This document shows, piece after piece, positions 4,927 to 64,000 of a stretch of 64,000 nt of DNA. Under the pieces are notes generated by a model that was given only the letters and a program-made list of their open reading frames with translations, was not told the origin of the DNA and ran no database searches. The position numbers were made by a program, and so were the translations under genes. Source of the DNA: Kofleriaceae bacterium (GTDB lineage Bacteria; Myxococcota_A; Polyangia; Haliangiales; Haliangiaceae); contig JASNYD010000006.1 of the NCBI GenBank assembly GCA_048500355.1, forward strand, positions 544,211-608,210, in the 5' to 3' direction. The stretch's first letter is position 1; each line of letters starts with the position of its first letter.

Positions 4927-4943
4927 GTCGCTGCCGGTGTACC

Positions 4944-9004: not shown

Positions 9005-9053
9005 CCTGGCGTCCGGGGTCCGAGGCCCGACGGCCGACGGCCCTTCGACCGCG

Positions 9054-9486: not shown

Positions 9487-9513
9487 ATCGTCCGTCTCCC
9501 GGACGCCCCCAGC

Positions 9514-15575: not shown

Positions 15576-15585
15576 CGCGTGGTTC

Positions 15586-16640
15586 GCCCGACCGCGGTCG
15601 GAGCTCGCGGGAACCGAACGGCGAGCCCCATCGCTCCGGTCGCCCTGAGCCCATCGCTCCGGTCGCCCTGAGCCCATCGCTCCGGTCGCCCTGAGCCCAT
15701 CGCTCCGGTCGCCCTGAGCCCATCGCTCCGGTCGCCCTGAGCCCATCGCTCCGGTCGCCCTGAGCCCATCGCTCCGGTCGCCCTGAGCCCATCGCTCCGG
15801 TCGCCCTGAGCCCATCGCTCCGGTCGCCCTGAGCCGCCCGAGCGCCAGCGAGGGCGTGTCGAAGGGCGACAAGCCGCGGCCGTCGCGCGAACGATGTCGG
15901 GCGCGTGCCGGAGGCCGTTCGTCGGGAGCCCTTCACCGACCGCGGTCGGAGACTGCGCGAACGAACGGCGAGCCCCTGCTCTCCGGTCGCCCTGAGCCCA
16001 TCGCTCCGGTCGCCCTGAGCCCATCGCTCCGGTCGCCCTGAGCCCATCGCTCCGGTCGCCCTGAGCCCATCGCTCCGGTCGCCCTGAGCCCATCGCTCCG
16101 GTCGCCCTGAGCCGCCCGAGCGCCAGCGAGGGCGTGTCGAAGGGCGACAAGCCGCGGCCGTCGCGCGAACGATGTCGGGCGCGTGCCCGAGGCCGTTCGT
16201 CGGGAGCCCTTCACCGACCGCGGTCGGAGACTGCGCGAACGAACGGCGAGCCCCTGCTCTCCGGTCGCCCTGAGCCCATCGCTCCGGTCGCCCTGAGCCC
16301 ATCGCTCCGGTCGCCCTGAGCCCATCGCTCCGGTCGCCCTGAGCCGCCCGAGCGCCAGCGAGGGCGTGTCGAAGGGCGACAAGCCGCGGCCGTCGCGCGA
16401 ACGATGTCGGGCGCGTGCCGGAGGCCGTTCGTCGAGAGCCCTTCACCGACCGCGGTCGGAGACTGCGCGAACGAACGGCGAGCCCCTGCTCTCCGGTCGC
16501 CCTGAGCCCATCTCTCCGGTCGCCCTGAGCCCATCGCTCCGGTCGCCCTGAGCCCATCGCTCCGGTCGCCCTGAGCCGCCCGAGCGCCAGCGAGGGCGTG
16601 TCGAAGGGCGACAAGCCGCGGCCGTCGCGCGAGCGATGAC
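15586..16640 (+). repeat. composite intergenic repeat: 4 macro-units, each an about 170-nt module followed by 4-10 copies of a 23-nt tandem repeat (cccatcgctccggtcgccctgag); the module contains the perfect palindrome ccgaccgcggtcgg
   Basis: Read directly: 23-nt periodicity (for example 15671/15694). Module copies begin near 15836, 16115, 16347 and 16577. The near-identical 61-aa ORFs at 15856, 16134 and 16366 are repeat artefacts. Confidence 0.85.
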
Positions 16641-16654
16641 GGCCGACGAGCCGG

Positions 16655-18265
<1,611 letters not shown>

Positions 18266-19242: not shown

Positions 19243-19350
19243 CGCCGTTCGAGGGCGGAGCCGGGCTCGACACGCGAGGCCCGAGGGCCCGAGACCCTGC
19301 GACGTCGCCCCTTCGGGGCTTCGCTCGGGGTGTGCGGGGGGAGGAGGTCG

Positions 19351-19816
19351 AGCCCGGGGCCGGATCCGGACCCGAGTCCGGATCCGAACCCGAACCCGAG
19401 TCCGGATCCGAACCCGGACCCGAGTCCGGATCCGAACCCGAACCCGAGTCCGGATCCGAGCCCGAGTCCGGATCCGAACCCGAACCCGAACCCGAACCCG
19501 AGTCCGGATCCGAGCCCGAGTCCGAGTCCGGATCCGAGCCCGAGCCCGAGTCCGGATCCGAGCCCGAGTCCGAGTCCGGATCCGAGCCCGAACCCGAGTC
19601 CGGATCCGAACCCGAGCCCGAGTCCGGATCCGAGCCCGAGCCCGAGTCCGGATCCGAACCCGAGTCCGGATCCGAACCCGAGTCCGGATCCGAACCCGAG
19701 CCCGAGTCCGAGCCCGAACCCGAGTCCGGATCCGAACCCGAACCCGAGTCCGGATCCGAGCCCGAGTCCGGATCCGAACCCGAGTCCGGATCCGAACCCG
19801 AGCCCGAGTCCGAGCC
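19351..19816. repeat. tandem hexanucleotide array (GARNCC)n with a gagtccggatcc 12-mer superstructure, about 77 units
   Basis: Same repeat family and the same + strand orientation as 9054-9486. Lies between the FAD-oxidoreductase stop (19820) and the EEP start (19242), both on the minus strand. Confidence 0.85.
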
Positions 19817-19819
19817 CGC

Positions 19820-21436
19820 TCACGCCACCGGCGGCAGTCCCCGCGCGCGCACGATCGCCCGCGCCAGCCGCACGCCGTCCATCGCCGCCGACACGATCCC
19901 CCCGGCGTAGCCCGCGCCCTCGCCGCCCGGATAGAGCCCGGCCAGATCGGGGCTCTCCAGCGTCGACGGATCGCGCGGTATCCGGACCGGGCTCGAGGTC
20001 CGCGACTCGACGCCGACCAGCACCCCCTCCTCGGAGCCGAAGCCGCGGATGGTGCCCGCGAACGCGCGCAGCGCGACGCGCAGCCGCGCGGCCAGGTCGA
20101 GGCCGCTGGCGTCGAGGACCGCCGCGACGTCGCCGGCGGCCAGCCCCGGCTGGTAGCTCGAGCGCGGGACCGTCGACGAGGCGCGCCCGGCGACGAAGTC
20201 GGTGACCCGGGTGGCCGGCGCCGCCAGCGCGCCGCCGCCGGCGGCGGCCGCCGCCTCCTCGAGGCGGCGCTGCAGCGTGACCCCGGCCAGCGGCCCGGCG
20301 AGCCCGAGCCGGGCCAGGTCGGCGAGCTCGACGCCGACCACCAGGCCGGAGTTGGCGAACGGCGAGTCGCGGCGCGACAGGCTCATGCCGTTGACCACCA
20401 CCCCCTCGGGCTCGGTCGCCGCCGGCACGATCCACCCGCCCGGGCACATGCAGAACGAGAACACGCCGCGCCGTCCTCCGTCGCCGTCGCTCTGGTGGAC
20501 CAGCTTGTAGGCCGCGGCCCGCAGCCGCGGGTGGCCGGCGTGGCGGCCGTACTGGGCCTGATCGATGAGCGGTTGCGGGTGCTCGACCCGGACCCCGACC
20601 GCGAACGGCTTGGCCTCGAGCCCGACCCCGGCCGCCGCCAGCCAGCCCCAGACGTCGCGCGCCGAGTGTCCGGTCGCCACCACCACCTCGCGCGCCGCCA
20701 GCTCCCGGCCGTCCGCCAGCCGGACACCGGCCACCACCGGGCGGCCGCCGCGGCTCGCCACCAGCAGGCCCTCGGCACGCGCCGGCAGCTCGAAGCCGAC
20801 CCCGCACCCGGTCAGGCGCTCGCGCAGCGAGGTGATCACCCGCGGCAGCTTGTTGGAGCCGATGTGAGGCCGGGCGTCGACCAGGATGTCGGCGGGCGCG
20901 CCGTGCACCACCAGCAGCTCGATCACGTCGCGGACGTCGCCGCGCTTGTGGGCCCGGGTGTAGAGCTTGCCGTCGCTGTACGTGCCCGCGCCGCCCTCGC
21001 CGAAACAGTAGTTGCTGTCGCGGTCGACGGTGCCGTGCTGGGTCAGGCCCTTGAGATCGCGCCGCCGCGCCTGCACCAGCTTGCCGCGGTCGAGGACGAT
21101 CGAGGCCACGCCGTGGCGCGCCAGCTCGTGGGCACAGAACAGCCCGGCCGGGCCGGCGCCGACGATGATCACCGGCGCGCCCGCGACCTCGCGCGGCGGC
21201 GGTCCGCCCAGGGCCGGCGCCACCGCCGGCCGCGGCCCGACGGTGAGGTGGAGCCGGACCCGGTGGCGTCGGGCGTCGATCGCGCGGCGCCGGATCTCGA
21301 GCGGCGGCAGCGCCGCCGGCGCCACCCCCAGGCGCGCCCCCACGGCCGCCGCCAGCGCGGCGTCGTCGAGCGCGGCGTCGAGGTCGAGATCCAGCTCGAG
21401 CTCGTCGTCGGGAGACATCATCCCGGGCCCCATCAT
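19820..21436 (-). CDS. FAD-dependent oxidoreductase (uncharacterised FAD-dependent dehydrogenase family, COG2509-like)
   Basis: Dinucleotide-binding [21 protein letters not shown], ... DRG, and [18 protein letters not shown] near the C-terminus. Start at ATG 21436 ([11 protein letters not shown]). Confidence 0.75.
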
Positions 21437-21649
21437 CCTGGGGACCGGGTCGCTGGCATGGTTCCGCGCCGCAACGTCGCCGATAGTGCCACGCGTCCTG
21501 CCGACGGAGGGCCCGACGGGGCTCCCGGCGCGCTCGGCGGAGGGAGCGAGCCCGGCGCGGGCGACGGGCCAGCCGCGGGCGGGGACGCCGACGCTCCTCA
21601 CGAACGGCGTCGGCAAGAGCCCGTCATCACTCGCGCGGGGCCGCGGCCT

Positions 21650-22128
21650 GTCGGCCTTCGACACGCCCTCGCTCGCGCTCGGGCGGCTCAGGCCGACCGG
21701 AGAGATGGGCTCGGAGCGACTCGCTCGCGCTCGGGCGGCTCGGGCCGACCGGAGAATGGGCTCAGGGCGACTCGCTCGCGCTCGGGCGGCTCAGGCCGAC
21801 CGGAGAGATGGGCTCAGAGCGACTCGCTCGCGCTCGGGCGGCTCGGGCCGACCGGCGTGATGGGCTCAGGGCGACTCGCTCGCGCTCGGGCGGCGCGGGC
21901 CGACCGGCGTGATGGGCTCGGGCCGACCGGCGTGATGGGCTCAGGCCGACTCGCTCGCGCTCGGGCGGCGCGGGCCGACCGGCGTGATGGGCTCGGGCCG
22001 ACCGGAGAGACGGGGCTCGCCGTTCGTTTCCCGCGAGCTCCGACCGCGGTCGGTGAAGGGCTCAGGCCGACCGGAGAGACTGGCTCGCCGTTCGTTTCTC
22101 GCGATCGCCGGCCGCGGTCGGTGAAGGG
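21650..22128 (-). repeat. second, inverted copy of the composite repeat element (reverse complement of the 15586-16640 modules plus 23-nt repeat variants)
   Basis: gacacgccctcgctcgcgctcgggcggctc is the reverse complement of gagccgcccgagcgccagcgagggcgtgtc. gccgttcgtttcccgcgagctccgaccgcggtcggtgaagggctc is the reverse complement of the 15590-15630 module. ctcaggccgaccggagagatggg is a variant of the reverse-complemented 23-mer. Confidence 0.8.
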
Positions 22129-36485: not shown

Positions 36486-39400
36486 ATGAACCGACGACTC
36501 CTCCTCGTCCTGGGGCTGGCCGCGCTCGCGGCCGCGCTCGCGATCTACGTCCTGCGGAGCGATCGCGGTCGCGGCGACCGCGCGGCCTCCACGACCGCGA
36601 GCGGCCCCGCCGCCGGCGCGGCGGCGGGGCGCGGCGGCGCCCGCGCCGGCACCGGCGTCGTCGATCCGCGCACGCAGCGGCCGGCGTCGATCGCGGGCAC
36701 GATCCGCACCGACGGCGGCGGGCCGCTCGCCGGCGCGCGGGTGTGCACGTCCTGGTTCGCCGAGGGCGCCACCGACGACGACCGGCGCGAGCCCACCTGC
36801 ACCAGCAGCGGCGGCGACGGCGCGTACCTCCTGCGCGCCGTCGTCCCCGGCACCCACCGCGTCTTCGCCTTCGCCGACGGCCACCTGCCGGCGGCGTGGC
36901 GCGACCCCGATCCCGAGCGCGACCGGGCGTGGTTCGAGCTCGCCCCCGGCCAGGCGCGTACCGGCGTCGACCTCGCGCTGGCGCCGGGCGGCGCGGCGGT
37001 GAGCGGCGTGGTCGAGGACGTGAGCGGCGGGCCGGTGGCCGACGCCGTGGTGGAGATCCGGGCCGACCGCGGGTGGTGGTCGCGGGGCGAGGCGCGGACG
37101 ATCACCCGCAGCGACGAGCACGGGCGCTTCACGACCTGGACCCGCGCCGGGCAGATCACGGTCTCGGCGGCGGCCGACGGCTACGCCCCGGGCAACGCCA
37201 GCGCGGTGGCGCCGTCGACCCAGATCGTCGTCCTGCTGACGCCGGAGTCGGTGCTGGCCGGGCGCGTGATCGAGGCCGGCAGCGGCGCCCCGGTGCCCGA
37301 CGCCATCGTCAGCGTCGGCGACTGGCGCGCCGGCGACGAGAGCAGCGACGCCAGCACCCGCACCGACGCCGACGGCCGCTTCCGCCTGACCCGCCTCAGC
37401 CCCGGCCGCTACAAGCCGGGCGCGACCGCGCGCGGCCGCTTCGGCGAGCCGGGCGAGAGCGTGCTGCTGGGGCTGGGGCAGACCATCGAGGACGTGGTGA
37501 TCGAGGTCCACGCCGCCGCCGCGGTCCGCGGCCGGGTCGTGATCGAGGACGGCGCCGCCACCCGGCCGTGCGCCGACGCCTGGGTCAGCCTGCGCGACGC
37601 CACCGCCGACCGCTGGCAGGGCGACAGCGCCGACGACGACGGCCGGGTCGAGCTGATCTCGGTGCTGCCCGGCCGCTACGAGGTGAGCATCCACTGCGAG
37701 GGCTACCTGGCGCGCGACCGCTACGACGCCGTGGTGGTGGCGTCCGCCGACCTCGACGGCCTGGTGTGGACGGTCGGCCCCGGCGGTCGCATCCGCGGCA
37801 CGGTCCGCACCTCCGGCGGCGAGCCGGTCGCCGACGCCAGCGTGTCGGCGCGGGTCGCGGACGGCGCCGCCCGCGCCCAGCGGAGCTGGGGACACGACAC
37901 CAGCCGCGCCGACGGCACGTTCCGCATGAAGGGCCTCGCCGCCGGCGACTACGCCGTCGAGGTCCAGGCCAGCGGTCAGCGCGGGCCCGACGAGGCGCCG
38001 CGGGTGACGGTGCCGCCCGGCGGCGAGGGGACGCTCGACGTGGTCCTGCCCGCCGGCGGCACGATCGCCGGCGCCGTCGTCGACACCGACGGCAAGCCGG
38101 TGAGCGGCGCCCGGGTCCGGGTCGCCAACGACGGCTGGAGCTGGGGCGCCGGCGAGGGCCGCACCGACGACGACGGCCGCTTCGCGATCGAGGGCGTGCG
38201 CCCGGGCGAGCGCCGGGTGGTCGCCAGCCGCGGCTGGTCGCAGACGATGCGCCGGCCCGGCTCGAGCGACGACGACGTGCAGGGCGAGCGGGTGACGTGG
38301 CCGCCGGCGCCACCGCCACGGTGCGGCTGGTGGTCGAGGCCCGCTCCGGCGTCATCCGCGGCGCGGTCACCGACGAGCGCGGCCAGCCGGTGGGCGACGC
38401 CTGGGTGATCGCGTCGCGGGTGTCGGAGGCCAGCGGTCGCCTCGCCAGCAGCGCCGCCCGCGACACGCGGTGGAGCTGGGGCCGCGACGACCGCCCGGTC
38501 ATCACCGGCCCCGACGGCCGCTTCGCCGTGCGCGAGCTGGCGCCCGGCCGCTACGCCGTGCGCGCCTACCGCCGCGGCGGCGGCGAGGCGGTGGCCGAGC
38601 AGGTCGAGGTCGGCGCGACGGTGTCCCTGGTGATCCGCGCCACCGGCAGCCTCGCCGGCACCGTCGCCGTCGCCGGCGGCGGCGCGCCGCCCGACGAGCT
38701 GCACGTCGCGGTCAGCGACGAGCAGACCGGGTTCTCGCGACGCGAGCGCTTCTTCCGGACCGGCGGCGCGTTCGCGCTCCACGACCTGCCGGCCGGCACC
38801 TTCGTCGTGAGCGTCGACGCCGCCGGCGGGCGCGGCCTGGCCACCGTCGCGCTCGCCACCGGCGAGCGCAAGACCGGGCTGACGCTGGTGCTCGAGCGCA
38901 AGGTCCGGGTGCGCGGGCGCATGGTCGAGCTCGGCACGACCACGCCGGTGGCCGGGCTGCAGGCGATCGTGCAGCCCGTCCGGGGAGTGAGCACGAGCAC
39001 CTTCGTCATGAGCGAGAGCGGTGACCGCCAGCACATCAGCGGCGACGACGGCCGCTTCGAGCTCGCCGACGTCCCGACCGGCAAGAGCTGGCTCGTGGCG
39101 TGGCCGCTCGCCTGGGACAGCTCGCCGTGGGCCGGCAGCCGCACCTACGTCGAGCTCGACGCCGCGGCCGGCGCGGTGATCGACGTCGGCGACGTCGAGG
39201 TCCTGCGCCGGCGCAAGCGGACGAGCGAGCCCGACGGCGATCTGGGGTTCACGCTGGTCCAGCAGCCGCCCGGTCAGGATCCACCGCTGACCCGGCTCGA
39301 GGTCGCGCTGGTGCGGCCGCAGGGTCCGGCGGCGCGCGCGGGGCTGGCGGTCGGCGACGTGATCGTGTCGGTCGACGGCCACGACGTGCGGGGCGCGCTC

Positions 39401-39505
39401 AGCAGCCGCGCCCGGCCGCTGTGGAACGTGCTCGAGGGCACGGAGGTGACGCTGGGCCTGGCCCGCGGCGCCTCGGTCCGGATCAAGGCCGGACCGCCCC
39501 TGTGA
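36486..39505 (+). pseudogene. membrane-anchored protein with about 9 carboxypeptidase-regulatory-like (transthyretin-like) repeats and a C-terminal PDZ domain; reading frame broken by an apparent -1 nt frameshift near 38296
   Basis: N-terminal [25 protein letters not shown]; repeated (I/V)xGxVxDxxGxPVxxAxVxV...DxDGRF...PGxY modules. Frame 36486 is protein-like to about 38295 and then turns Arg/Pro junk. The +1 frame (ORF 36743..39505) is protein-like only after about 38295 and carries the last repeats plus PDZ (GLAVGDVIVSVDG). gtgacgtggccgcc versus expected gtgacgGtggccgcc. Confidence 0.6.
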
Positions 39506-39752
39506 CCCGGATCGCCCGCGCGCCGCCGGCGAAGCGGATGAGGTGAACGCGCGGGCCCTGCGACGCGCGCGGCTTGCGCGGTCCCGGGGCCCCTGCGCAA
39601 CACCCCCAACGGGCGTTCACGCCTGGTGGCCGGACCTCCTGGGTTCGCACCTCTCCAAGCGGCTGATCTTGCACACCTCAGGGCCGCCTCACGGGTCCGG
39701 ACCGGAGGATGCAATCGCCAGACGGTGTACGATCAAGCCCAGAGGAAACCCC

Positions 39753-40406
39753 ATGAAGCGTAGCCACCTCGTTGCCCTCGCCGCCGTCACCCTCGCCCCG
39801 GCCGCCGCCGCCGCTCAGCCTGGCTACGGGGCGCCCCCGCCCCCGCCGCCACCGCAGGGCTATTACTCGCAGCCGCCGACGATCCCCGGCGGCTTCCACG
39901 ACCGCACCGGCCGCATGGCCCTCGGCTTCTCGCTCGGCCTGGGCGGGCTGAACGTCGGCGGCGAGGAGGTGACCTGCCCGTCGTGCGACTACGATCCGCT
40001 CGCGGTCGAGTTCGACTTCCACATCGGCGGCATGCTGTCGCCGCGCTTCGCGCTCCTGTTCGAGGTCCAGGCCAACGGCCAGACCATCGCCGAGAACGCG
40101 TACGGCGCCGCCAGCCTGGTCCAGGCCACCGCCATGGTCGCCGGCCAGTACTGGCTGACCCCGCAGCTCTGGGTCAAGGGCGGCATCGGCGCCGCCAGCC
40201 TGTCGTACAGCTACGACGACGGCTACGCCTCGGACAGCGAGAACATCGGCGAGGGCATGGCGGTCATGGGCGCCATCGGCTACGAGGTGCTGAGCGCGCC
40301 CACGTTCTCGATCGACCTGCAGGGCCGCATCATCTCGGGCAGCTACGACTCGTTCGACGAGAACGTCACCGCGGGCTCGATCGGCGTCGGCTTCAACTGG
40401 TACTGA
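39753..40406 (+). CDS. outer-membrane beta-barrel-like protein with Pro-rich N-terminal linker
   Basis: SD aggaa; signal MKRSHLVALAAVTLAPAAAAA. Alternating hydrophobic beta-strand pattern and C-terminal aromatic (GVGFNWY). Confidence 0.6.
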   Translation: MKRSHLVALAAVTLAPAAAAAQPGYGAPPPPPPPQGYYSQPPTIPGGFHDRTGRMALGFSLGLGGLNVGGEEVTCPSCDYDPLAVEFDFHIGGMLSPRFALLFEVQANGQTIAENAYGAASLVQATAMVAGQYWLTPQLWVKGGIGAASLSYSYDDGYASDSENIGEGMAVMGAIGYEVLSAPTFSIDLQGRIISGSYDSFDENVTAGSIGVGFNWY

Positions 40407-40441
40407 CGCGACGTCTGGGCGCCGCACGGCGACGCGGTGAC

Positions 40442-40476
40442 GACGGCCGGCCTCGCGCCGGCCGTCGCGTTTTCGG
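40442..40476. terminator. rho-independent terminator-like hairpin (gacggccgg-cctcgcg-ccggccgtc followed by gcgTTTTcgg) between convergent genes
   Basis: A 9-bp GC stem with a 7-nt loop followed by a T-run, a rare feature in this GC-rich DNA. Located between the stops at 40406 (+) and 40504 (-). Confidence 0.55.
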
Positions 40477-40503
40477 CGCCCGCGGCCCCGCGGACCGCCC
40501 TCG

Positions 40504-41094
40504 TCACGGCGTCGCCGCGGCGATGGACGGCGCGATCGGGTCGGGCACGCGGTTCTTGACCGGCGGGATCGACCGCAGGTAGGCGAACATCGCGCGCAGG
40601 TCGTCGTCGGTCAGCGTGGCGATCAGCTCGGCCGGCATCGGCGGCAGGAGCGGCCGGCCCTTGCCCATGTGGCGCGCGTTGCGGATCGTGTCGATGAAGG
40701 TCTGGGCGTCCCACGTGCCGAGACCGGTCTCCGGGTCCGGCGTCAGGTTGGCGGTGAAGCTCACGCCCCACGGCCCGCTCCACGCCGTCATGGTGTCGGT
40801 CGTCGACACGTTCCACGGCCCCTGCGCGGCAGGGGGCGGCGGGACCACGACGTCCTGCGGATGCCCGGCGAGGAGGTGGGCCTCGTCGCGCTCGGGGCCG
40901 TTCGGCCCCAGCTTCATCGGCGTGTGGCAGTCGTTGCACAGCGCGGCGGTGACGAGGTACTTGCCGCGCGCCACGGGATCGTCGGCGGCCGGCGCCGGCT
41001 CGCGCGAGCCGCAGGCGGCCAGCGCGCCGGCGGCCAGCGCGAGCGCGGCGCCGAGGTAGCGGGGGGAGGGGATCGAGGCAAGACGGATCGTCAT
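40504..41094 (-). CDS. c-type cytochrome lipoprotein (single CxxCH)
   Basis: Signal and lipobox (GALALAAGALAAC-GS); heme motif CNDCH. Confidence 0.7.
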   Translation of the reverse strand: MTIRLASIPSPRYLGAALALAAGALAACGSREPAPAADDPVARGKYLVTAALCNDCHTPMKLGPNGPERDEAHLLAGHPQDVVVPPPPAAQGPWNVSTTDTMTAWSGPWGVSFTANLTPDPETGLGTWDAQTFIDTIRNARHMGKGRPLLPPMPAELIATLTDDDLRAMFAYLRSIPPVKNRVPDPIAPSIAAATP

Positions 41095-41155
41095 CTGGGT
41101 CTCCTGGTTGGCGGGCGAGCGTTGCGAGGGCGGTGGTCCAGCGCGCGGGCGCCGG

Positions 41156-42193
41156 TCAGTCGAGCTCCGTGATCCAGCGCGCGAGGAGCGCGACGGCGGC
41201 GGCGTCGGTCCGCCGCGTGCCGAGCGGCGGCATCTGGTGCTGCGGGTCGCGCGAGCGGACCCGGGCGAGGAGGACGCTGGCGTCGGGGGCGCCGGGCGCG
41301 ATCCGGACCCGCGCGGCGTCGGGATCGCCGGGCAAGGGCGCGCGGCCGATCCGACCGAGGGTGGTGCGCACCGCGGGATCGGTGGCGCCGCCGGGCTCGT
41401 CGAGGGCATGGCGCAGGTCGAGGCCGAGCTCGGCCAGCGCGCCGCGGTCGTCGTGGCAGCCGCCGCAGTTGCCGTGCAGGTAGCCGAGGGCGGCCCGCTC
41501 GGTGGGCGAGCGGGCCGCGATGCGCGGCGGCGTGACGAGGTACGCCGGCGGCAGGCCGACGAGCTGTCCGGAGGCGGCCAGCGCGGGGAGGTCGACGGCG
41601 CCGGCCGGCACGGGCTCGGCGTTAGGCGCCGCCGGATCGCGATCCGGCGAGAGCTGGAGCGCCGCGAAGCCGAGCACCGGCGTCGGCCCGTCGTGGCAGA
41701 GGCGACAGTCGCCGACCGCCGGCACCTCGTGCGGCGGCCCGCCGCCGACGTCGACGGCGGCGCCGCCCGGGACGAGCACCGCGTCGGCGCCGTCGCCGTC
41801 CCACAGGTAGGCGGCGAAGCGCCACGAGCCGTCGGCGACCCGCTCGATCATGCGGGTCTCCACCGGCCGGTCGAACGCGAACTCCTTCCACAGGCGCGTG
41901 CCGACCGGGAACACCCAGGCGTCCGGATCCGTCGCGTCGATCGCGGCGCCGGGCGGCAGGTAGATCCAGCGGCGCTTGGTGGCGCCGTCGGTCCACAGCG
42001 GATACTGGGGCGAGAACGGCCGCACGCCGGCGGCGAGGACGTCGACGGCGCCCGCGGCGTGGAGCCCGGTGTCGGCCAGGCGCACCGGCAGCGGCGCCAC
42101 GTCGGCGTGGTCGGCGCCGGCGGTGGGCGCGCAGGCCTGGCCCGAGGCCACCAGGCCCGCGGCGAGGACGAGAGCGGAGGCGCGCGGCGTCAT
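41156..42193 (-). CDS. diheme c-type cytochrome lipoprotein
   Basis: Signal MTPRASALVLAAGLVASGQAC; heme motifs CRLCH and CGGCH. Confidence 0.7.
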   Translation of the reverse strand: MTPRASALVLAAGLVASGQACAPTAGADHADVAPLPVRLADTGLHAAGAVDVLAAGVRPFSPQYPLWTDGATKRRWIYLPPGAAIDATDPDAWVFPVGTRLWKEFAFDRPVETRMIERVADGSWRFAAYLWDGDGADAVLVPGGAAVDVGGGPPHEVPAVGDCRLCHDGPTPVLGFAALQLSPDRDPAAPNAEPVPAGAVDLPALAASGQLVGLPPAYLVTPPRIAARSPTERAALGYLHGNCGGCHDDRGALAELGLDLRHALDEPGGATDPAVRTTLGRIGRAPLPGDPDAARVRIAPGAPDASVLLARVRSRDPQHQMPPLGTRRTDAAAVALLARWITELD

Positions 42194-42275
42194 GCGCCCA
42201 CCATGCCCACGATCGCGTCGCCGCGTTGCTAAGGGTTCGCTGTGCCTTCGCTAAATGTTCCCTAAGCGGAACCGA

Positions 42276-43634
42276 TCAGTCGCGCTCGACCAGCTCGAGC
42301 GGGCGCACGACGCTGAGGACGAAGCGCCCGCGGCCGGCCGGGATCATCCGGATCTCCTGGCACTTCTCCTCCAGGCGCTTGCGGAGGAGGATGAGCCGGC
42401 TCTCGAGGTTGTCGCGCAGCTCCGGCAGCCCGAGCCACGGGTCGAGGCGCAGCTCGCGGTTCGAGAACTGGGTGCGGCCGTCGCGGGTGAAGGCGTTCAC
42501 CAGCTTCCACAGGATCTTGCCGGGGACGTTGCGCACCAGGTAGTCGTCGCCGACGAAGACGCAATCGTCGCCGCGGTAGAACGTGAGGCGGAGCGGCGCC
42601 GCCGCGGCCGCGGTCGCGGCCGCCGCTCCGGACGCCTCGTCCGGATCGTCGTCGTCGTCCGACAGGTGGTCGATGGCCATCGCCACCTGGGTCGCCACGA
42701 TCTGCAGGAACGCCTCGTGCCAGTCGTCGAACGCCAGCGGGTCCCGGCTCTCGAGCGCGAGCACGCCGTGCAGCCGGTCCGAGGCGACGAGCGGCAGCGC
42801 GAGCTGCGCCGCGGCGTCGGGGAGCCCGGGCAGCGGGATCTCGGGCCGCAGGGTGGCGCCGCCGCCGGCGGCGACCACCCGATCGCGGATGGCGCGGCCG
42901 TAGCTGAGGTCGCGGGCGCCGCCGGCGCGCGCCACCTGCCGCCCGGCGGCGACGGCGCCGATCAAGCCCTCGCCGAACGCCACCTCGGCGCCGACGCCGG
43001 TGCGGCCGTAGCCGCGGCTGGCGATGGTCACCAGGCGGCCCCCGCCGTCGGGGACCAGCACCATGGCGTGGCCGAAGCCGAAGATCGCCTCGAACGCGTC
43101 GAGGGTGGCGTCGAGCAGCTCGTCGAGCCGGGTGGCGCGCGAGATGCGCGCCGACAGGCACTGCAGCGCGCGCAGCTCGTTGAGCGGCCCGCCCTCGGGC
43201 TCGAGGGTCGCGAGCGCGGGCGGGGCGCCGGCGAGGTAGCCCTCGACCTCCGCGAAGCGCGTCACCTCGCAGACGTCCGCCGACAGCAGCGCGAAGACCC
43301 CGGTCATGCCGGTCTGGGAGGCGATCGCCTGGATGCGCATCGCCATCGAGTCGAAGAGCGGACCGCTGGTCTCGGCCCGCAGGAACCGGAGGTCGAGCCG
43401 GAAGCACTCGTAGGTGAGCGGGTCCCAGAGCTCGACCTGCGCCCACGGATGCTCGGCGAGGTTGCGCCGCGTCTTGTTGAAGAACTGGCACGACAGCGCG
43501 ACGTGTCGATCGTCGACGAAGTAGACCTGACTCACGAAGGTCACGTTGGGCGTGCCGTCGCGCGCGCAGGTGGCGAGGGCCGACGGCAGGACACCCTGGA
43601 AGCAGCGGGCGAAGCGCGACAGCCGCGGGATCAC
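42276..43634 (-). CDS. GAF-domain protein with N-terminal PPOX-class (FMN-binding split-barrel-like) domain
   Basis: GTG 43634..43632 overlaps the TGA stop of the upstream gene (GTGA). N-terminal CARDGTPNVTFVSQVYFVDDRHVALSCQFFNKT; central GAF-like block (LVPDGGGRLVTIASRGYGRTGVGAEVAFGEGLIG). Domain calls are inferred. Confidence 0.6.
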   Translation of the reverse strand: MIPRLSRFARCFQGVLPSALATCARDGTPNVTFVSQVYFVDDRHVALSCQFFNKTRRNLAEHPWAQVELWDPLTYECFRLDLRFLRAETSGPLFDSMAMRIQAIASQTGMTGVFALLSADVCEVTRFAEVEGYLAGAPPALATLEPEGGPLNELRALQCLSARISRATRLDELLDATLDAFEAIFGFGHAMVLVPDGGGRLVTIASRGYGRTGVGAEVAFGEGLIGAVAAGRQVARAGGARDLSYGRAIRDRVVAAGGGATLRPEIPLPGLPDAAAQLALPLVASDRLHGVLALESRDPLAFDDWHEAFLQIVATQVAMAIDHLSDDDDDPDEASGAAAATAAAAAPLRLTFYRGDDCVFVGDDYLVRNVPGKILWKLVNAFTRDGRTQFSNRELRLDPWLGLPELRDNLESRLILLRKRLEEKCQEIRMIPAGRGRFVLSVVRPLELVERD

Positions 43635-44101
43635 GACGCCCCCATCGGTCGGCCGGCCCCGGGTCCCGGGGTCTGCTCGAAGACGGCGTCGAGGCGGACC
43701 TCGACCGCGGTCGCCGGCCAGGTCACGAGCCGGCGCACCACCGGCAGCGGCAGGCCGATGCCGGCGAGGCTCCCGGTGTAGCCGCCGGCCTGGGTCTCGA
43801 TCGCGGCGCGCTCGTCGGCGCGCGCCGGGCGCACGGCGGTGACCACGCCCTTGAGCTGGACGGTGCGGTGGGTGGCCACCTCGCAGGCGGTGACCGCCAG
43901 CGGCGCGTCGGGGGCGAGCACCGCCAGGAGCGCGGCGCCCGCCTGGTCGGCGACGAACACCGTGAACGTCCGACGATCGGCGCCGGGCCGCAGCCCCACC
44001 GCCCGCGATACCCGCGGCCGCAGCTCGGCGTCGCGCCCGGCGGCGATGAACGACATGCCCGCGCTCAGGAACGCGACCAGGTCCGCGGTCAGCTCGTGCA
44101 C
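43631..44101 (-). CDS. pyridoxamine 5'-phosphate oxidase-like (FMN-binding split barrel) family protein
   Basis: GTG 44101 start ([24 protein letters not shown]...FTVFVADQ...[17 protein letters not shown]), about 156 aa with the composition and length of the PPOX class. Weak. Confidence 0.5.
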
Positions 44102-44198
44102 CCTGCCCCATCCTACCGGATCTCGCCGGCGGCGGGCCCGGGCGGCGCGGAGCGCGGCGGCCACCCGGAACTTGCTATGTTCGCGCGCGATGCGAGCG

Positions 44199-45443
44199 AA
44201 CCCGCACTTCCAGAAGCTGCCCGCCGGCTACCTGTTCCCCGAGATCGGCCGGCGCGTGCGCGCCTACGCCGCCGCCCACCCCGCGGCCAAGGTCATCCGC
44301 CTCGGCATCGGCGACGTCACCGAGCCGCTGGCGCCGGCGATCGTCGCCGCCATGCACGGCGCGGTCGACGAGCTGGCCCGCCGCGAGACCTTCCGCGGCT
44401 ACGGCCCGGAGCAGGGCTACGACTTCCTCGTCGACGCCATCCGCGCCCACGACTACCAGGCCCACGGCCTCGACGTCGCCGCCGACGAGATCTTCGTCTC
44501 CGACGGCAGCAAGTGCGACAGCGGCAACTTGCAGGAGCTGTTCGCCGCCGACGCGGTGATCGCCGTGACCGATCCGGTGTACCCGGTCTACGTCGACTCC
44601 AACGTCATGGCCGGCCGCACCGGCGCCCCCGACGCCGACGGCCGCTACCCCGGCCTGGTCTACCTGCCGGCGACCGCGGCCAACGGCTTCTGCCCGCCGC
44701 CGCCCGAGGTCATGGACGCCCACGGGATCGACGTGGTCTACCTGTGCTCGCCCAACAACCCGACCGGCGCGGTCATGACCCGCGACCAGCTCGCGGCCTG
44801 GGTGGCGTGGGCGCGCGCCCACCAGGCCCTCATCGTCTTCGACGCCGCCTACGAGGCCTACATCCAGGATCCGTCCCTGCCCCGCTCGATCTACGAGCTG
44901 CCGGGCGCGCGCGAGGTCGCGGTCGAGCTGCGCAGCTTCTCCAAGCGCGCCGGCTTCACCGGCGTGCGCTGCGGCTTCATGGTGGTGCCCCGGGAGCTGC
45001 GCGCCACCGGCGCCGGCGGCGAGGAGGTGTCGCTGCACGCGATGTGGTCGCGCCGGCACACCACCAAGTTCAACGGCGCGTCGTACGTGGTCCAGCGCGG
45101 CGCCGCCGCGGTCTACACCGCCGACGGCCTGGCCCAGACCGGGGCCCAGATCGCGTTCTACATGGAGAACGCCCGCATCCTGCGCGCCGGCCTCGCCCGC
45201 GCCGGCTTCACCGTGTACGGCGGCGAGCACGCGCCGTACATCTGGCTGGAGACGCCGACCCGGGACGGCCGCCGGCTGACCTCGTGGGAGCTGTTCGATC
45301 TGCTCCTCGACAAGGCCCACCTGGTGGGCACGCCGGGCTCGGGCTTCGGGCCCGCCGGCGAGGGCTACTTCCGGCTGTCGGCGTTCAACTCGCGCGACAA
45401 CGTCGAGGAGGCGGTGGCGCGGCTGGGGCGGGTCTTCGCCTGA
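44199..45443 (+). CDS. dapL: LL-diaminopimelate aminotransferase
   Basis: The N-terminus [16 protein letters not shown] is the hallmark of DapL. The PLP-lysine region [14 protein letters not shown] is present. 414 aa. Confidence 0.85.
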
Positions 45444-45483
45444 TGCCGAGGCCGGCGCGGCGGGCCGTGCTACGAAGGCGTCC

Positions 45484-45741
45484 ATGAGCGAGCACCCCAC
45501 CGACTTCGTCGGCTCCGTCCACGACGCCATCCGGCAGGCCGTCCGCGAGCGCCTGCCCGACGCCGAGGTCGAGGTCACCGGCGGCGGCGGTCACTACACG
45601 ATCGGGGTGGTGTCGACCGCGTTCGACGGCAAGTCGCTGCTGGAGCGCCAGCGCCTGGTGCTGGGCGCGATCAAGCACCTGCTGTCCGGCGATCGCGCGC
45701 CGGTGCACGCGGTCGACTCGCTGACCACGCGCACGCCCTAG
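45484..45741 (+). CDS. bolA: BolA family protein
   Basis: 85 aa with a BolA/YrbA-like pattern (HxxxxxxxS...GGGHYTIGVVS...FDGKSLLERQRLV). Confidence 0.7.
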   Translation: MSEHPTDFVGSVHDAIRQAVRERLPDAEVEVTGGGGHYTIGVVSTAFDGKSLLERQRLVLGAIKHLLSGDRAPVHAVDSLTTRTP

Positions 45742-45827
45742 CGCTCGCCCGGGCGCCGTCCGGTTTCCCACGACGCGGCGTCGACGCGCGGCGCGATCGG
45801 CCCGCCGCGGGGTAGACTGCGCCGGCG

Positions 45828-47474
<1,647 letters not shown>

Positions 47475-47690
47475 GCGGCCGACGCGCGGGCGGCCGCGCG
47501 CGGTGGCGGCCGCCCTGGCGACGCGCGCGGTGGCGGCGGTGGGGCGAGCGGCGGGTGCGCGGCGGCGGGGTGGCGGCCGGGAGAGCGACGGGTGAACGGC
47601 GGCGGGGTGGCCGGGGGCCGCGCGGACGGCGCGCGGCGCGGTGGCGGCCGGGCGAATGCGGCGCCCGCGGTCCGCGTTATCCTCGGACCG

Positions 47691-48467
47691 ATGCCCAGCC
47701 CGAAGCTCAGCACCCTGCCCAGCCCGGCGCCCGGCGCCGGCGCCCGCGTCGCCATCGTCCTCGGCCTGGCCGCCTTCGGCCTCGGCTGCGGCGGCGCCTC
47801 CGGCCGCGGCGTCGAGCACCGCGGCGGCGCGGCGGCCCGCGGCGACACCCCGCCCTGCCCCACCGCCGACGCCTTGACCGCGCTGGCGCGGGGCGCCTGG
47901 GAGCTCGCCGACGGCACCGTCCACGTCGAGTGCGCCGCGCTGTGGGCCGAGGGCCAGGCCTGGTGGTACCTCGACGGCGCCGTCGAGCGCGAGGATCCGG
48001 ACGAGGGCTGGAGCGTGGACATGGGGCGCGCGCTGGTCGCCGCCGCCTCGGGCGCGACCGCGTGGCGCGAGGTCGACACCGGCATGCCACCGGCGACGCT
48101 CGACCGGTCGATCTCGGGCGACTTCACCGCCGTCGATCTCGACGGCGACGGCAGCGACGAGCTCCTGACCGTGAGCGGCTACAGCCACGGCGGTCACGAG
48201 GAGACCGCGCTCCACGTCTACCGCGTGGCCAGCGGCGCGGTGGTGGCCGCCGGCCGCCTGCCGCTGTCCGCCGACAACGCCGCCGCGGTCGAGGACGAGG
48301 CCGACATGATCCTGTGCCGGGGCGAGCACCGCCTGGTGGCAGGCCCGGGCGGCGCGACCCGGATCGAGATCACCGCCACCTGGATCGGCGCGGTCGAGCC
48401 CGACGCCTGCCCGCCCGAGGGGCGCCGCGTCTACCGCTGGACCGGCGAGGCGCTGGTGGCGGAGTGA
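47691..48467 (+). CDS. hypothetical lipoprotein
   Basis: MPSPKLSTLPSPAPGAGARVAIVLGLAAFGLGC-GG lipobox; the body is protein-like (DLDGDGSDELLTVSGYSHGGHEETALHVYRV). Flanked on both sides by G-rich direct repeats. Confidence 0.5.
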   Translation: MPSPKLSTLPSPAPGAGARVAIVLGLAAFGLGCGGASGRGVEHRGGAAARGDTPPCPTADALTALARGAWELADGTVHVECAALWAEGQAWWYLDGAVEREDPDEGWSVDMGRALVAAASGATAWREVDTGMPPATLDRSISGDFTAVDLDGDGSDELLTVSGYSHGGHEETALHVYRVASGAVVAAGRLPLSADNAAAVEDEADMILCRGEHRLVAGPGGATRIEITATWIGAVEPDACPPEGRRVYRWTGEALVAE

Positions 48468-48640
48468 CGGCGGTGGGCCGCGGGCGCGCGGCGCGCGTGG
48501 CGGCGTGACGGCGGTGGGCCGGCGGGCTCGCGGCGTGCGGCGTGACGGCGGTGGCGGGGCCCGCCAACCGTGGCCGGATTCCGGACGGGTGGCCGGAATC
48601 CGGCCGGGCGGTGGCCGGATCCCGGCCACGGCGCGCGGCG
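48468..48640. repeat. REP-like region: 3 direct copies of gtgacggcggtgggccg (about 38-nt spacing) followed by three GC hairpins (ccggattccgg / ccggaatccgg / ggccggatcccggcc)
   Basis: Read directly; sits immediately upstream of the RAYT-like transposase gene. Confidence 0.7.
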
Positions 48641-48689
48641 GATCGCGGGCTTGGCGCTGGCGCGCGGCTTGCTCCGGCAGGGTCGCGAG

Positions 48690-49589
48690 ATGTCGCTCCC
48701 GCGCCCCATCTACCCCGGCAGCTTCTACCTGCTGAGCCGCCGGTGCGTGCAGCGGATGTTCCTGCTGCGGCCGGACGCGGTGACGAACAACAACCTCGCG
48801 TACTGCCTGTTCGAGGCGGCGCAGCGCTTCGGCATCGTCGTGATCTTGCCGCTGGCGATGTCCAACCACCAGCACACGGTCCTGTACGACCCGTGGGGCA
48901 ACATCGTCGCGTTCATGGAGCGCTTCCACGGCATGTTCGCCCGGGTACAGAACGCGCGGCTCGGCCGCTGGGAGAACCTGTGGGCCGCGGAGCCGCCGTC
49001 GCTGGTGCGGCTCGAGGGTCGCGACGACGTGCTCGACAAGCTGGTCTACGTCGCGACCAACCCGGTTGCCGCCGGCCTCGTCGAGCGGTCGCACCAGTGG
49101 CCGGGCGTCAACGGCCTGCCGGCGCTGCTCGCAGGGCGGGCGATGGTGGCGCGCCGGCCCGAGCACTTCTTCGGGCCCGACAGCGCGCTGCCCGAGGTGG
49201 TGTCGCTCGAGCCGACCATCCCGCCCGAGCTCGGCGACGCCGCCGCCGTCAAGCGCGAGCTACGCGAGCGCGTCCGCGCCGCCGAGGACCGCCTCGCCCG
49301 CGAGCGCGCCGCCGCCGGCGTCCCGGTGATGGGCGTCCGCGCGGTGCTGGCCCAGGCCTTCACCGACTCGCCGCGGACCCACGAGCCGCGCCGCGTCCTC
49401 AGCCCGCGCGTCGCCGCCCGCAACGTCTGGCTGCGCATCGAGGCCCTGCGCCGCAACCGCGCCTTCCTCGACGCCTACCGCGCCGCCCGCGCCCTCTGGC
49501 TCGCCGGCCTCGACGTCGTCTTCCCCGCCGGCACCTACTGGCTCCACCGCTTCGCCGGCGTCCCCGTCGCGCCCCTCGTCAAATCCTGA
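48690..49589 (+). mobile_element. REP-associated tyrosine transposase (RAYT) / IS200-like Y1 transposase gene
   Basis: HUH-type motif region LPLAMSNHQHTVL and the catalytic-Tyr motif LVYVATNPVAAGLV (Y-x-x-x-N-P-V as in RAYT/IS200 TnpA). No IS inverted repeats; flanked by hairpin repeats instead. Confidence 0.6.
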
Positions 49590-49900
49590 CGCCCCGCCCC
49601 CGGCCCTCGCGCGTGCCCACCGGCACGCGCCGTCGCGGCGTGGCCGCGCGCGGCTCGGCGAGCGGTCCGCACGGCTGCCGTGCGGCCGGTCGGAGCGGAC
49701 GCCGCGCCTCCCTTCCGCCGTAACCCCGGTACGAGCTCGGACCGTAACCCCGGTACGAGCTCCGAGTACGAGCTCCGCGCCGGTATGCCGTCGCGGCGTG
49801 GCCGCGCGCGGCCGGGCGACCGGTCCACGCGGTCGCCGCGCGGTCGGTTGGAGCGGCCGCCGTAACCCCGGTGACCTGCTGGTCGCTCCAACCAGCGCAC
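49590..49900. repeat. downstream repeat block: two about 100-nt direct repeats (gccgtcgcggcgtggccgcgcgcggc...ccgtaaccccggt), internal 22-nt tandem ccgtaaccccggtacgagctcg, and GC hairpins (gcgtgcc-cacc-ggcacgc; ccgcacggc-t-gccgtgcgg)
   Basis: Read directly. Confidence 0.7.
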
Positions 49901-50202
49901 CGACGACGAGAGCTCCGACAAGGAGTGCAGGTGTTGTTGCATGATCGAGGGGCACACAACTGCGAGGCCAGGAGCCAAAGGGGGGACGGCAGCTTCAGGG
50001 GCGAGCGTGCGCAGGACTGGCCCAGCGAGTGCGCGTGCTCAGCGCACTCTGCGCCGAATGCACCCGCTGCCTTCCTGATCCGGGTGCGGGCTTCCACTCC
50101 CTCGAACGCGGCGAGCTCGAGGTAGACCGGGCGGCCACGCGCGGGCATCGAGTAACCCGCATGTTACGCAGCCGGGGGCGGCGCTCGGCTAGCGTGGAGT
50201 CG

Positions 50203-62369: not shown

Positions 62370-64000
62370 TCAGCGCAGGACGACCGGGAACAGCGCGACG
62401 GTCTGCACGCGCTCGCGGCGGAAGCGCGCCACCTGGCGCAGCGTCCGCACCATGACGGTCGCGACCTCGGGCGAGACCTCGCGCACCGCCCGGGCCACCA
62501 CCGTCGACAGGCCGAGCGGGGCCTGGACCTCGCCGAAGCCCGAGACCAGGTCGCGCAGGGTCAGCTCGGGCGGGTAGACCTCGAGCGCGGCGCCGGCGTC
62601 GACCTGGCCCAGGGTCCGGGCCTCGGTCAGCGCGGCGTCGAGGCCGCCCAGGGCGTCGACCAGGCCGAGGCGCAGGGCGTCGCTGCCGGTCCACACCCGG
62701 CCCTGGGCGATGGCGTGGATCTCGTCCCGGCTCTTGCCGCGGCCGGCGGCGACGCGGCCGACGAAGACGTCGTAGATCGACTGCATCGACGCCTGGACCG
62801 CGGCCCGCTCGTCGGCGGTCCACGGCCCGAGGCTGGCCATCATCGTCGCCCGCTTGCCGCGGCCCATCGGGTAGGTGGTGACGCCGACCTTGGCCAGCGC
62901 GCCCCCCGGCGCCAGCTTGCCGCCGACGACGCCGATCGAGCCGGTCAGGGTGTCGGGCTGGGCGAAGATCTTGGTGGCGCCGGCGGCGATGTAGTAGCCG
63001 CCCGAGGCCGCGAGGTCGCTCATCGACACCACGACCGGCTTCTTCGCCCGGACCTCGGCCACGGCGTGCCAGATGAGCTCGGACGCCAGGGCGCTGCCGC
63101 CGCCGGAGTCGATGCGCAGGACCACGGCCTTGACGCTGTCGTCGGCGGCGAGGACCCGCAGGGCGGGGACCAGCGTGCGCGAGGCGATCTCGCCGCCGGC
63201 GCCCATGATGCCGTCGCCGCTACCGTCGACGATGTCGCCGACCGCGTAGACCAGCGCGACCCGGGGGTGGCTCGGCCGCGGCGCCGGCATCGCGCCCAGG
63301 AAGCGCAGGACCTTGAGCATGCCGGCGGCGTCGTCGGCCTTCTCCTCGAGCGTCACCCGCGTCCACGGCCCGGCGGCGGCCGCGTCGCGGAAGGCCTCGA
63401 AGGGCTCGACGGCGTCGACCAGCCGCGCCGCCAGCGCGCGCTCGGCGGTGAACATGGCCTCGTCGATGAGGGCCTTGACCGCGTCGGGCGCGAGCCCGCG
63501 TCCGGCGGCGATGACCTCGACCATCGAGGCGTAGGCCCGATCGAGGATGGCGTCGAGGGTCTCGACCATCTCCTTCGACGGCCGGTCGCGGGTGAGCGGC
63601 TCGGCCGCGCCCTTGAAGGCGCCGACGTGGAGGAAGTCGGCGGTGACGCCGAGGTCGTCGAGCAGGCCCTTGAGGTGGACCGGCATGGCGGCCGGCCCCG
63701 ACACCACGACCTCGCCGTTGGGCGCCAGGCCGATGCGCTCGCACGCCGACATCACCAGGTACTGGGCGTTGGCCGCGCCCTCGGTGTGGCAGTGCAGCTT
63801 CTTGCCGGCGGCGCGGAACGCGTGGAGCGCGGCGTTGACCTCGGCGGCGTCGGGCAGCGACAGCGACAGGCCGTCGACCCGCAGCAGCAGCCCGGTGAGC
63901 TGGTCGTCGCCGGCCAGCGCCCGCAGGCGCTCGGTGAGGCGGCGGACCTGGATGGCGTCGCTCGGACCCGACATCCACGAGAAGCTCTCGAGCTCGGCGA
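62370..64000 (-). CDS. sppA: signal peptide peptidase SppA (protease IV), 5' end possibly beyond window
   Basis: Two ClpP/crotonase-like halves; the catalytic Ser region SMSDLAASGGYYIAAGA and a Lys region. ATG at 63974 exists but the frame stays open to the window edge. Confidence 0.85.
   Translation of the reverse strand, partial: AELESFSWMSGPSDAIQVRRLTERLRALAGDDQLTGLLLRVDGLSLSLPDAAEVNAALHAFRAAGKKLHCHTEGAANAQYLVMSACERIGLAPNGEVVVSGPAAMPVHLKGLLDDLGVTADFLHVGAFKGAAEPLTRDRPSKEMVETLDAILDRAYASMVEVIAAGRGLAPDAVKALIDEAMFTAERALAARLVDAVEPFEAFRDAAAAGPWTRVTLEEKADDAAGMLKVLRFLGAMPAPRPSHPRVALVYAVGDIVDGSGDGIMGAGGEIASRTLVPALRVLAADDSVKAVVLRIDSGGGSALASELIWHAVAEVRAKKPVVVSMSDLAASGGYYIAAGATKIFAQPDTLTGSIGVVGGKLAPGGALAKVGVTTYPMGRGKRATMMASLGPWTADERAAVQASMQSIYDVFVGRVAAGRGKSRDEIHAIAQGRVWTGSDALRLGLVDALGGLDAALTEARTLGQVDAGAALEVYPPELTLRDLVSGFGEVQAPLGLSTVVARAVREVSPEVATVMVRTLRQVARFRRERVQTVALFPVVLR

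Follow-up and report, generated by a model that had tools for sequence, protein, structure and literature searches.

A RAYT-like Y1/HUH gene in a Kofleriaceae genome is probably one copy of an uncharacterized, insertion sequence-like mobile element family

A 64,000-nucleotide stretch of DNA from a Kofleriaceae bacterium (the window; 75% G+C) contains a gene for a protein with the motifs of a Y1/HUH transposase, flanked on both sides by tandem repeats and hairpins (Table 1). The initial annotation regarded the gene as a REP-associated tyrosine transposase (RAYT) and the flanks as clusters of repetitive extragenic palindromic (REP) sequences, organized like bacterial interspersed mosaic elements (BIMEs), that the enzyme might mobilize. 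All the features it described were found in place, including the three upstream direct repeats and the three stem-loops, and all the repeats listed at 48445–49872 exceed the expectation from shuffling. On the downstream side, the two direct repeats and the perfect hairpins are present, but the supposed 22-nt tandems are a 24-nt unit repeated twice and a 13-nt unit repeated 1.9 times. No open reading frame (ORF) of tnpB size is present, as had been noted. Because the same ordered modules flank homologues that are only ~60% identical, the array and the hairpins belong with the gene and are read here as the ends of the element itself; they appear to comprise a left-end tandem array plus a right end present in duplicate, rather than REP clusters of the BIME type. 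The locus is probably one copy of an uncharacterized family of autonomous, insertion sequence (IS)-like mobile elements in the Kofleriaceae/Haliangiales (Myxococcota).

The ATG start of the gene agrees with the MSLPR N-termini found among homologues. The sole NCBIfam match of the protein is NF047646 (REP_Tyr_transpos, "REP-associated tyrosine transposase"; E = 2.4e-7, aa 8–138). The proposed Y1-transposase or RAYT profile hit was thus obtained, but at 30.8 bits it lies below the curated equivalog cut-off of 80 bits, and a Pfam search with the window protein gave no match at E ≤ 1. NF047646 was also matched by all of 50 diverse relatives (best E = 1.1e-16). The relatives scored 14–22.8 bits against Pfam Y1_Tnp (PF01797), under the 23-bit threshold, and the IS200 model NF033573 was weakly matched by only 4 of the 50. 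An AlphaFold2 model (mean predicted local distance difference test score, pLDDT, 80.7) contains a Y1-type beta-alpha-beta-beta-alpha-beta-alpha core in aa 11–122, and this Y1/HUH fold is closest to that of TnpA_REP. A profile of 50 relatives (35–48% identity) finds Protein Data Bank (PDB) entry 4ER8, the Escherichia coli TnpA_REP, by sequence with an E value of 2e-4; PDB sequence searches with the single protein and with an alignment designated A1 returned nothing, and only the more diverse profile A2 found this entry. In the resulting alignment, sNHyH lies over PEHMH and Y-t-l-a-N-P-V-k-a-G-L-V...W-P over YIYINPVKHGWV...WP, so that both catalytic motifs are in register and the context of the catalytic Tyr aligns to YIYINPV of 4ER8. 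Seven residues (H60, H62, D67, Y120, N124, P279, and T282) are invariant in the 50-sequence alignment. The 4ER8 alignment, the invariant residues, and the NF047646 matches show that SNHQHTVL (aa 58–65) and the Y-V-x-x-N-P-V motif in LVYVATNPVAAGLV (aa 118–131) had been correctly identified as the HUH and Tyr motifs. In IS608, the residue at Tyr+4 is the third metal ligand, and the invariant N124 (Y+4) would fit an active enzyme. The protein thus has a conserved and, judging from these residues, apparently active HUH/Tyr domain of the RAYT type. The C-terminal half (aa ~150–299) lies outside the 4ER8 match and is conserved as well as the nuclease domain, giving whole-length conservation across the family; searches for a fold or sequence match of this domain to anything known were negative.

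A word-indexed protein search returned 1223 matches, and an exhaustive search found 3763 representative clusters with E ≤ 1e-3, of which at least 564 (50% identity) reached E ≤ 1e-30, nearly all of about 300 aa. The 268 relatives in species-representative genomes are almost all from Kofleriaceae, Haliangiales, or "Myxococcales" metagenome-assembled genomes (MAGs). Kofleriaceae genomes carry 2–11 or more copies with 86–99% identity in different contexts. In MAG JACKDR (HK-STAS-MYXO-12), at least 11 copies were counted; ten of these share 86–99% identity and occupy different contexts on 261–527-kb contigs, some of which carry two. MAG JAGPCY has five copies (97–99% identical), and the long-read MAG CAVYYE has two (99% identical) on separate megabase-size contigs. 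Family copies often lie at contig ends. The 90%-identity cluster of the window protein has 15 members, among them an intact copy that shares its 1.37-Mb contig with two disrupted ones, and three fragments from MAG HS111. Exact look-ups of the window protein, P0001, and P0400 for their genomic context returned no record. The disrupted copies P0392/P0395/P0396 and P0394/P0404 have common break points after aa 234 (EPRR/GKRCVNP..., the slash marking the break) and aa 268 (YRAARA/PEFIPALAEEL...). The family, the window lineage included, multiplies and decays like an insertion sequence.

Truncated and head-to-tail partial copies were also found, at loci L055 (11068–11852), L061 (1613–2104), L026 (8439–8948), and L071 (7510–10876). 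They consist of a full copy and then a 5'-truncated copy that ends again at the right end, or of two full copies 2.5 kb apart, and could have arisen by nested insertion or by one-ended, rolling-circle-like events. The youngest copy pairs delimit the homologous unit at about −240 to +174/+196. In the pair L062/L069, homology extends from −243 to +196 and stops ~10 nt past the downstream motif, at the end of ...CAACCCCGGTCGGGTTCG; in JAGPCY, it extends to +174 and stops at the motif.

In the relatives, the hairpin after the stop codon abuts the near-invariant CGT(C/T)GCGGCGTGG, and CAACCCCGGT, the reverse complement of the upstream motif, follows ~100 nt past the 13-mer at about +145 to +180; the inverted terminal motif of the right end is (T/C)AACCCCGGT. 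The sequence ACCGGGGTT is massively enriched at the loci of relatives, on the + strand upstream and on the − strand downstream, and the core of the terminal motif has the logo ACCssACCGGGGTTGaTT. In the relatives, the gene thus lies between ACCGGGGTTGA and, on the downstream side, the reverse complement of that motif; the units of this inverted pair are not palindromic REPs. The reported lack of terminal inverted repeats holds for the window copy, which has the motif on the right side only, but not for these relatives.

In 45 of 59 distinct sequences, a stem of 7 bp or more that reaches to the 13-mer can be formed when G.T pairs are allowed on the sense strand, compared with 16 when only Watson–Crick pairs are counted, 21 when A.C pairs (the antisense equivalent) are allowed, and 1.9% of shuffles. 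Stem changes are compensatory (GCGCGAGCC/GGCTCGCGC, GCGCAACCC/GGGTTGCGC, ACGTCCGCGC/GCGCGGGCGT, and GCCCGGGC/GCCCGGGC). From this covariation and the asymmetry between G.T and A.C, the right-end hairpin is concluded to be under selection and to fold, either as RNA or as single-stranded DNA, from the sense strand.

Across the family, no sequence conservation is found in the spacer that separates the 13-mer from the terminal motif. It shows no excess folding energy as structured RNA or DNA (mean z about 0 on both strands), and a search of Rfam gave no match. What is constrained is its length: the classes are 79 nt (two loci, including the window), 90–91 (nine loci), 100–103 (29 loci), and 111–113 (four loci), then 118, 121, 123, and 135, a spacing of roughly 11 nt (Rayleigh R = 0.84 for a period of 11). 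The length class differs even between copies whose proteins are 94–99% identical. The simplest reading of these classes is helical phasing of two protein-bound sites on double-stranded DNA. In JACKDR (L008–L019 and L029; +58 to +160), the spacers of ten copies, ~100 nt long, are mutually unrelated, whereas the proteins are 86–99% identical and the DNA of the genes and of the hairpin–13-mer segment is 90–93% identical; the spacer lengths are 90–91 or 100–103 nt, and 135 nt in L018. These spacers have been replaced and have not simply diverged.

Much of this right end is repeated in the window copy. The direct repeats 49629–49704 and 49787–49862 (76 nt, 86% identical) are each followed by CCGCCGTAACCCCGGT, and CCGTAACCCCGGT is present three times at the locus. 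The second right-end copy (49787–49872) is without the covarying hairpin. In L062, the stretch that starts with the 13-mer and ends with the motif occurs twice in tandem. Because this duplication has exactly the structure of the two ~100-nt repeats of the window, the latter most plausibly represent a tandem-duplicated right end.

On the left side, the far upstream region of relatives (−140 to −470) contains ACCGGGGTTGA on the + strand, between one and seven times in direct orientation and with array-specific spacers, and the near upstream region (about −125 to −60) contains a cluster of GTCCGG/CCGGAC boxes, such as CCGGACAGCGTGTCCGG. The window has three GTGGCCGGAWTCCGG units in the near region, which hold the palindromes ccggattccgg, ccggaatccgg, and ggccggatcccggcc, all of the short CCGGA/TCCGG type; a scan of the window with the box unit gave six matches against 1.07 expected, five of them at the locus. 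These palindromes correspond to the left box cluster of the relatives. Farther upstream lies the 41-nt array, which starts within the final 23 nt of the upstream ORF and overlaps its stop codon. Its cores, GCGG(A/C)GTGACGGCGGTGG, are at 48459–48476, 48500–48517, and 48537–48554, and they are the only three matches in the window to a GTGACGGCGGTGG-type core with up to one mismatch. Since its position (−231 to −136 from the ATG) and its unit spacing of 37–41 nt agree with those of the arrays upstream in relatives, the array is probably a diverged counterpart of the ACCGGGGTTGA arrays; the cores agree with the motif of the relatives at only 8 of 15 positions. The exact left motif is missing also in copies L005, L007, L016, L021, and L030. 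The distance on the left side showed no helical phasing (Rayleigh R ≤ 0.21). The window copy has an intact gene and right end and, probably, a diverged left terminal motif, and it may no longer move as a whole.

A short-read contig of the same strain (L207; ENA ERZ27309507 k141_231681) corresponds to window positions 37828–48550 with 99.95% identity and ends, garbled, inside the 41-nt left array. The left array or the element breaks the assemblies of this strain. Long hexanucleotide arrays, (CCGARC / CTCGGN)n, adjoin the left end of the element in five relatives (L007, L055, L061, L065, and L066); arrays of this kind are present in the window at 8942–9607 and about 19250–19550, 30–40 kb from the element.

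The hairpin families had been suggested to be dispersed substrates of the enzyme. Motif scans confined the flanking repeats and hairpins to the locus, with no gene-less copy elsewhere in the 64 kb. A metagenome scan with the window-specific CCGTAACCCCGGTAC gave 120 single chance matches, none with a family gene or array. In relatives, the motif occurs 71 times in the 1.02 Mb of DNA more than 1 kb from any gene copy; these occurrences form 28 clusters, of which 16 have at least two copies, whereas chance would give about 12 single copies. Because this averages about one cluster per 64 kb, the absence of gene-less arrays from the window is unremarkable. L036 has five gene-less intergenic clusters within 20 kb (2420–2560, 5570–5690, 14160–14200, 17250–17470, and 19760–19880), and L072 has 11 copies, with a cluster at 4745–5185. 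The units of these clusters combine the terminal motif ACCGGGGTTGA with a CTCGGACAGATCTCGGACA box pair; in L036, where the boxes are of the GTCCGA type, the unit is a left-end-like module in direct tandem. Overall, the gene-less arrays consist of direct tandem units and not of inverted doublets like those formed by REPs (REPINs), and they are dense only in some genomes. From their makeup, non-autonomous derivatives appear to exist, and the gene-less clusters are candidates for such derivatives, or for targets, of the element.

Table 1. Features of the RAYT-like locus and its neighbors (window positions unless marked aa)
Feature	Position	Strand or placement	Description
Class I fumarate hydratase gene	45828–47474		Upstream of the RAYT-like locus
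Lipoprotein-like ORF	47592–48467		Immediate upstream neighbor, stop codon 48465–48467
Whole element copy (probable)	about 48445–49880		Array, boxes, gene, right ends
Left tandem array	48445–48554	+	41-nt unit x2.8, Tandem Repeats Finder (TRF) score 141
Left box region	48570–48629	.	Three 19-nt GTGGCCGGAWTCCGG units
Y1/HUH gene	48690–49589	+	299 aa, two domains
RAYT-like Y1/HUH nuclease domain	aa ~8–147		H60-Q-H62, Y120, N124
Family-specific C-terminal domain	aa ~150–299		FPxGTYWL motif with invariant P279 and T282, long helices
Right-end hairpin	49609–49630	+	GCGCGTGCC-cacc-GGCACGCGC, perfect, 9 bp, just after stop
Family-invariant 13-mer CGTCGCGGCGTGG	49631–49643	+	Abuts hairpin
Right-end spacer	49644–49720	.	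77 nt, in the shortest length class (79 nt)
Perfect hairpin CCGCACGGC-t-GCCGTGCGG	49667–49685	in spacer	Specific to window copy
24-nt unit CCGTAACCCCGGTACGAGCTCSGA x2	49718–49765	+	Tandem duplication of terminal-motif unit
Right terminal motif TAACCCCGGT, first copy	49721–49730	−	Reverse complement of ACCGGGGTTA
Terminal motif, second copy	49745–49754		Within 49718–49777 local duplication
13-nt unit GTACGAGCTCCGA x1.9	49753–49777	+	Follows 24-nt tandem
Second right-end copy	49787–49872	+	GCCGTCGCGGCGTGG, 61-nt spacer, TAACCCCGGT at 49863–49872; slightly shortened
Alginate-export-type porin gene	from about 50203		Downstream of the RAYT-like locus

RAYTs are textbook transposases thought to be domesticated: each genome has a single copy, which either serves REP/REPIN repeats or exploits them. 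They are found at about one copy per genome, and duplicates are rare (PMC5581495); in the REPIN–RAYT systems of Pseudomonas and Enterobacteria described by Bertels and Rainey, single-copy, vertically inherited RAYTs are accompanied by hundreds of inverted doublets (PMC3116915, PMC5581495). The window protein resembles E. coli TnpA_REP (4ER8, NF047646) in the HxH on a beta-strand and in the Tyr helix Y-x-x-x-N-P-V-k-x-G-l-V...W-P, and the two systems share a hairpin beside a conserved single-stranded tail and, when the relatives are considered, a short inverted motif around the gene. The label of a RAYT-type gene is therefore apt for the Y1/HUH enzyme type, but the family is multi-copy and IS-like, which does not support domestication, and its 299-residue protein, which has an additional conserved domain at the C-terminus, is about twice as long as the single-domain TnpA_REP/RAYT proteins of about 150–170 aa. 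The flanking units also differ, being linear motifs in direct tandem rather than GTAG-hairpin REPs or REPIN doublets, without dispersal in the window.

With IS200/IS605 elements (IS608, ISDra2, and IS200), the family shares the expected Y1/HUH chemistry, an IS-like copy number, the absence of an evident target duplication, and a right-end subterminal hairpin followed by a short conserved tail, with strand asymmetry. It departs from them in its inverted terminal motifs of 10–13 nt, dissimilar left and right hairpins, phased spacer of ~100 nt, tandem end arrays, and lack of tnpB. IS91/ISCR and Helitrons offer a functional analogy only, with no homology claimed: one end is duplicated in tandem, and 5'-truncated copies share the right end (L055 and L061), recalling end bypass or one-ended events. 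Such rolling-circle HUH transposons use Y2 or Rep-helicase enzymes. The enzyme is nearest to RAYTs in fold and motifs, nearest to IS200-type elements in population behavior, and near to neither in end architecture. Because several defining features of each class fail, the family is filed as a Y1/HUH transposon and neither as a RAYT nor as an IS200/IS605 element.

A mechanism can be proposed for this architecture. The HUH domain would recognize the sense-strand hairpin and CGTCGCGGCGTGG as single-stranded DNA and would cut and rejoin near the 13-mer via a 5'-phosphotyrosine, as in IS200/IS605 and TnpA_REP/RAYT; this single-strand cleavage is suggested by the conserved catalytic residues only. 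The C-terminal domain would bind the double-stranded terminal motifs and boxes and set the geometry, which would account for phasing at 11 nt. The left arrays, the second right end, and the arrays without a gene would be products of end processing that was aborted or repeated. We tentatively suggest that this is a RAYT-clade enzyme that was never domesticated and that stands, as a living intermediate, between single-copy RAYTs and insertion sequences of the IS200 type. The right end, in which the sense-strand hairpin and 13-mer are coupled to the terminal motif by an arbitrary, rapidly replaced spacer in ~11-nt steps, may likewise be of a kind undescribed for HUH elements, although we hold this larger picture to be possible rather than likely. 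If it is true, a nucleoprotein complex, perhaps built from the C-terminal domain, would measure a double-stranded distance while the HUH domain works on the single strand, and the replacement of spacers between near-identical copies would reflect end-module exchange or targeted docking.

Several observations weigh against an autonomous element of this kind. No copy was found on any of 72,556 plasmids. Empty sites, circular junctions, and cleavage sites were not observed; an empty-site search via the fumarase neighbors met contigs that end in the left array (L207) or earlier (L204) and a loss of synteny in an 87% relative (L205). The transposition chemistry and the exact termini are inferred, and a DNA-binding role of the C-terminal domain is a guess because of its lack of any match. 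ACCGGGGTT was not found upstream in the window copy, and its equation with GTGACGGCGGTGG is drawn from position and array structure only. The unrelated spacers of JACKDR fit poorly with simple copying of a whole unit. Inverted terminal motifs are not known from IS200/IS605 elements.

The JACKDR spacer pattern would be explained by a serious rival, although on balance we consider that rival improbable. According to this alternative, a smaller IS200-like core (roughly 48560–49643, beginning ~20–40 nt before the left box palindrome and finishing with CGTCGCGGCGTGG) moves by peel-and-paste and inserts at a fixed, helically phased distance in pre-existing host repeats, ACCGGGGTTGA...TCAACCCCGGT, so that the outer arrays are the target. 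The homology of the ten JACKDR copies, from about −117/−143 to +56/+61, ends exactly at the 13-mer, and although the spacers beyond it are unrelated, the terminal motif comes at 90 or 101 nt. The geometry also resembles that of IS608, in which a hairpin is followed by a cut about 10–19 nt away, and the gene-less motif arrays could be targets. However, the homology of the youngest pairs takes in the spacer and ends at the terminal motif or ~10 nt beyond; the left and right hairpins differ, whereas the ends of IS200/IS605 elements share one hairpin; and no conserved short target is found at the edges of the core. An element that includes its outer motifs accounts for the boundaries of the youngest pairs and is preferred here.

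The initial annotation pointed instead to a classical RAYT–REP/REPIN system, in which a domesticated, vertically inherited nuclease spreads short non-autonomous flanking repeats and not itself. The fold and motifs of a RAYT, the terminal motif inverted around the gene as REPs are around RAYT genes, and the gene-less unit clusters in the intergenic DNA of some relatives (L036, L072; 28 clusters in 1.02 Mb) speak for it, and a Y1 enzyme accompanied by short non-autonomous repeats resembling its own flanks is indeed common to both systems. Here, however, the gene itself multiplies and decays, with 86–99% identical copies and fragments common, window lineage included, where RAYTs would be nearly single-copy; the arrays are few and run in direct orientation rather than as inverted doublets, and none without a gene occurs in the window; and the protein, twice as long as a RAYT, reaches 30.8 bits where the cut-off is 80. 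A classical system is thus unlikely. Far less likely still is an ordinary chromosomal gene whose flanks are unrelated GC-rich slippage repeats, a terminator hairpin, or operators, with no mobile element at all. The genome has 75% G+C with abundant tandem repeats elsewhere, the gene is single in the window between housekeeping-type genes, and the CCGGA palindromes could be operators. This reading is already largely refuted by the ordered flanking modules kept with ~60% identical homologues in many genomes and contexts, and by several near-identical copies per genome. A role of the hairpins as intrinsic terminators was not supported, as they have no T-run after them and no terminator-like consensus site; nor was a sigma-70 promoter in the boxes, where no consensus site was found; and, as noted above, Rfam gave no match.

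Other features of the window were compared with the locus. Arrays at 15546–16783 and 21639–22053, which had been offered as a composite substrate of the enzyme, contain a 23-nt unit (GGTCGCCCTGAGCCCATCGCTCC) inside a longer repeat of roughly 232–278 nt present four times; a related array with a 52-nt period is inverted about 5 kb away, with arms of 82–87 nt that are 89–91% complementary. A link to the Y1 locus was rejected, as the arrays have no sequence or motif in common with it. A patch of lower G+C at 49900–50000, between the element and the porin gene, contains an inverted repeat (GTGTTGT...ACACAAC; 49931–49937 and 49954–49960) that may regulate the porin gene. A weak tblastn similarity to aa 35–129 of the Y1 protein at 63501–63770 on the − strand (27% identity, E about 1) is probably due to chance.

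No description of this element family was found in the searchable literature. Because its members fall short of the Pfam and NCBIfam thresholds, these elements remain without annotation in the GC-rich genomes of Myxococcota, in which they disrupt assembly. As a large, uncharacterized sister family with the RAYT fold that is still multiplying and apparently leaving gene-less end arrays behind, it would offer a natural system for studying the origin of RAYTs and REPs. The phased, sequence-free spacer and the C-terminal domain are leads on an HUH enzyme that may combine single- and double-strand recognition.

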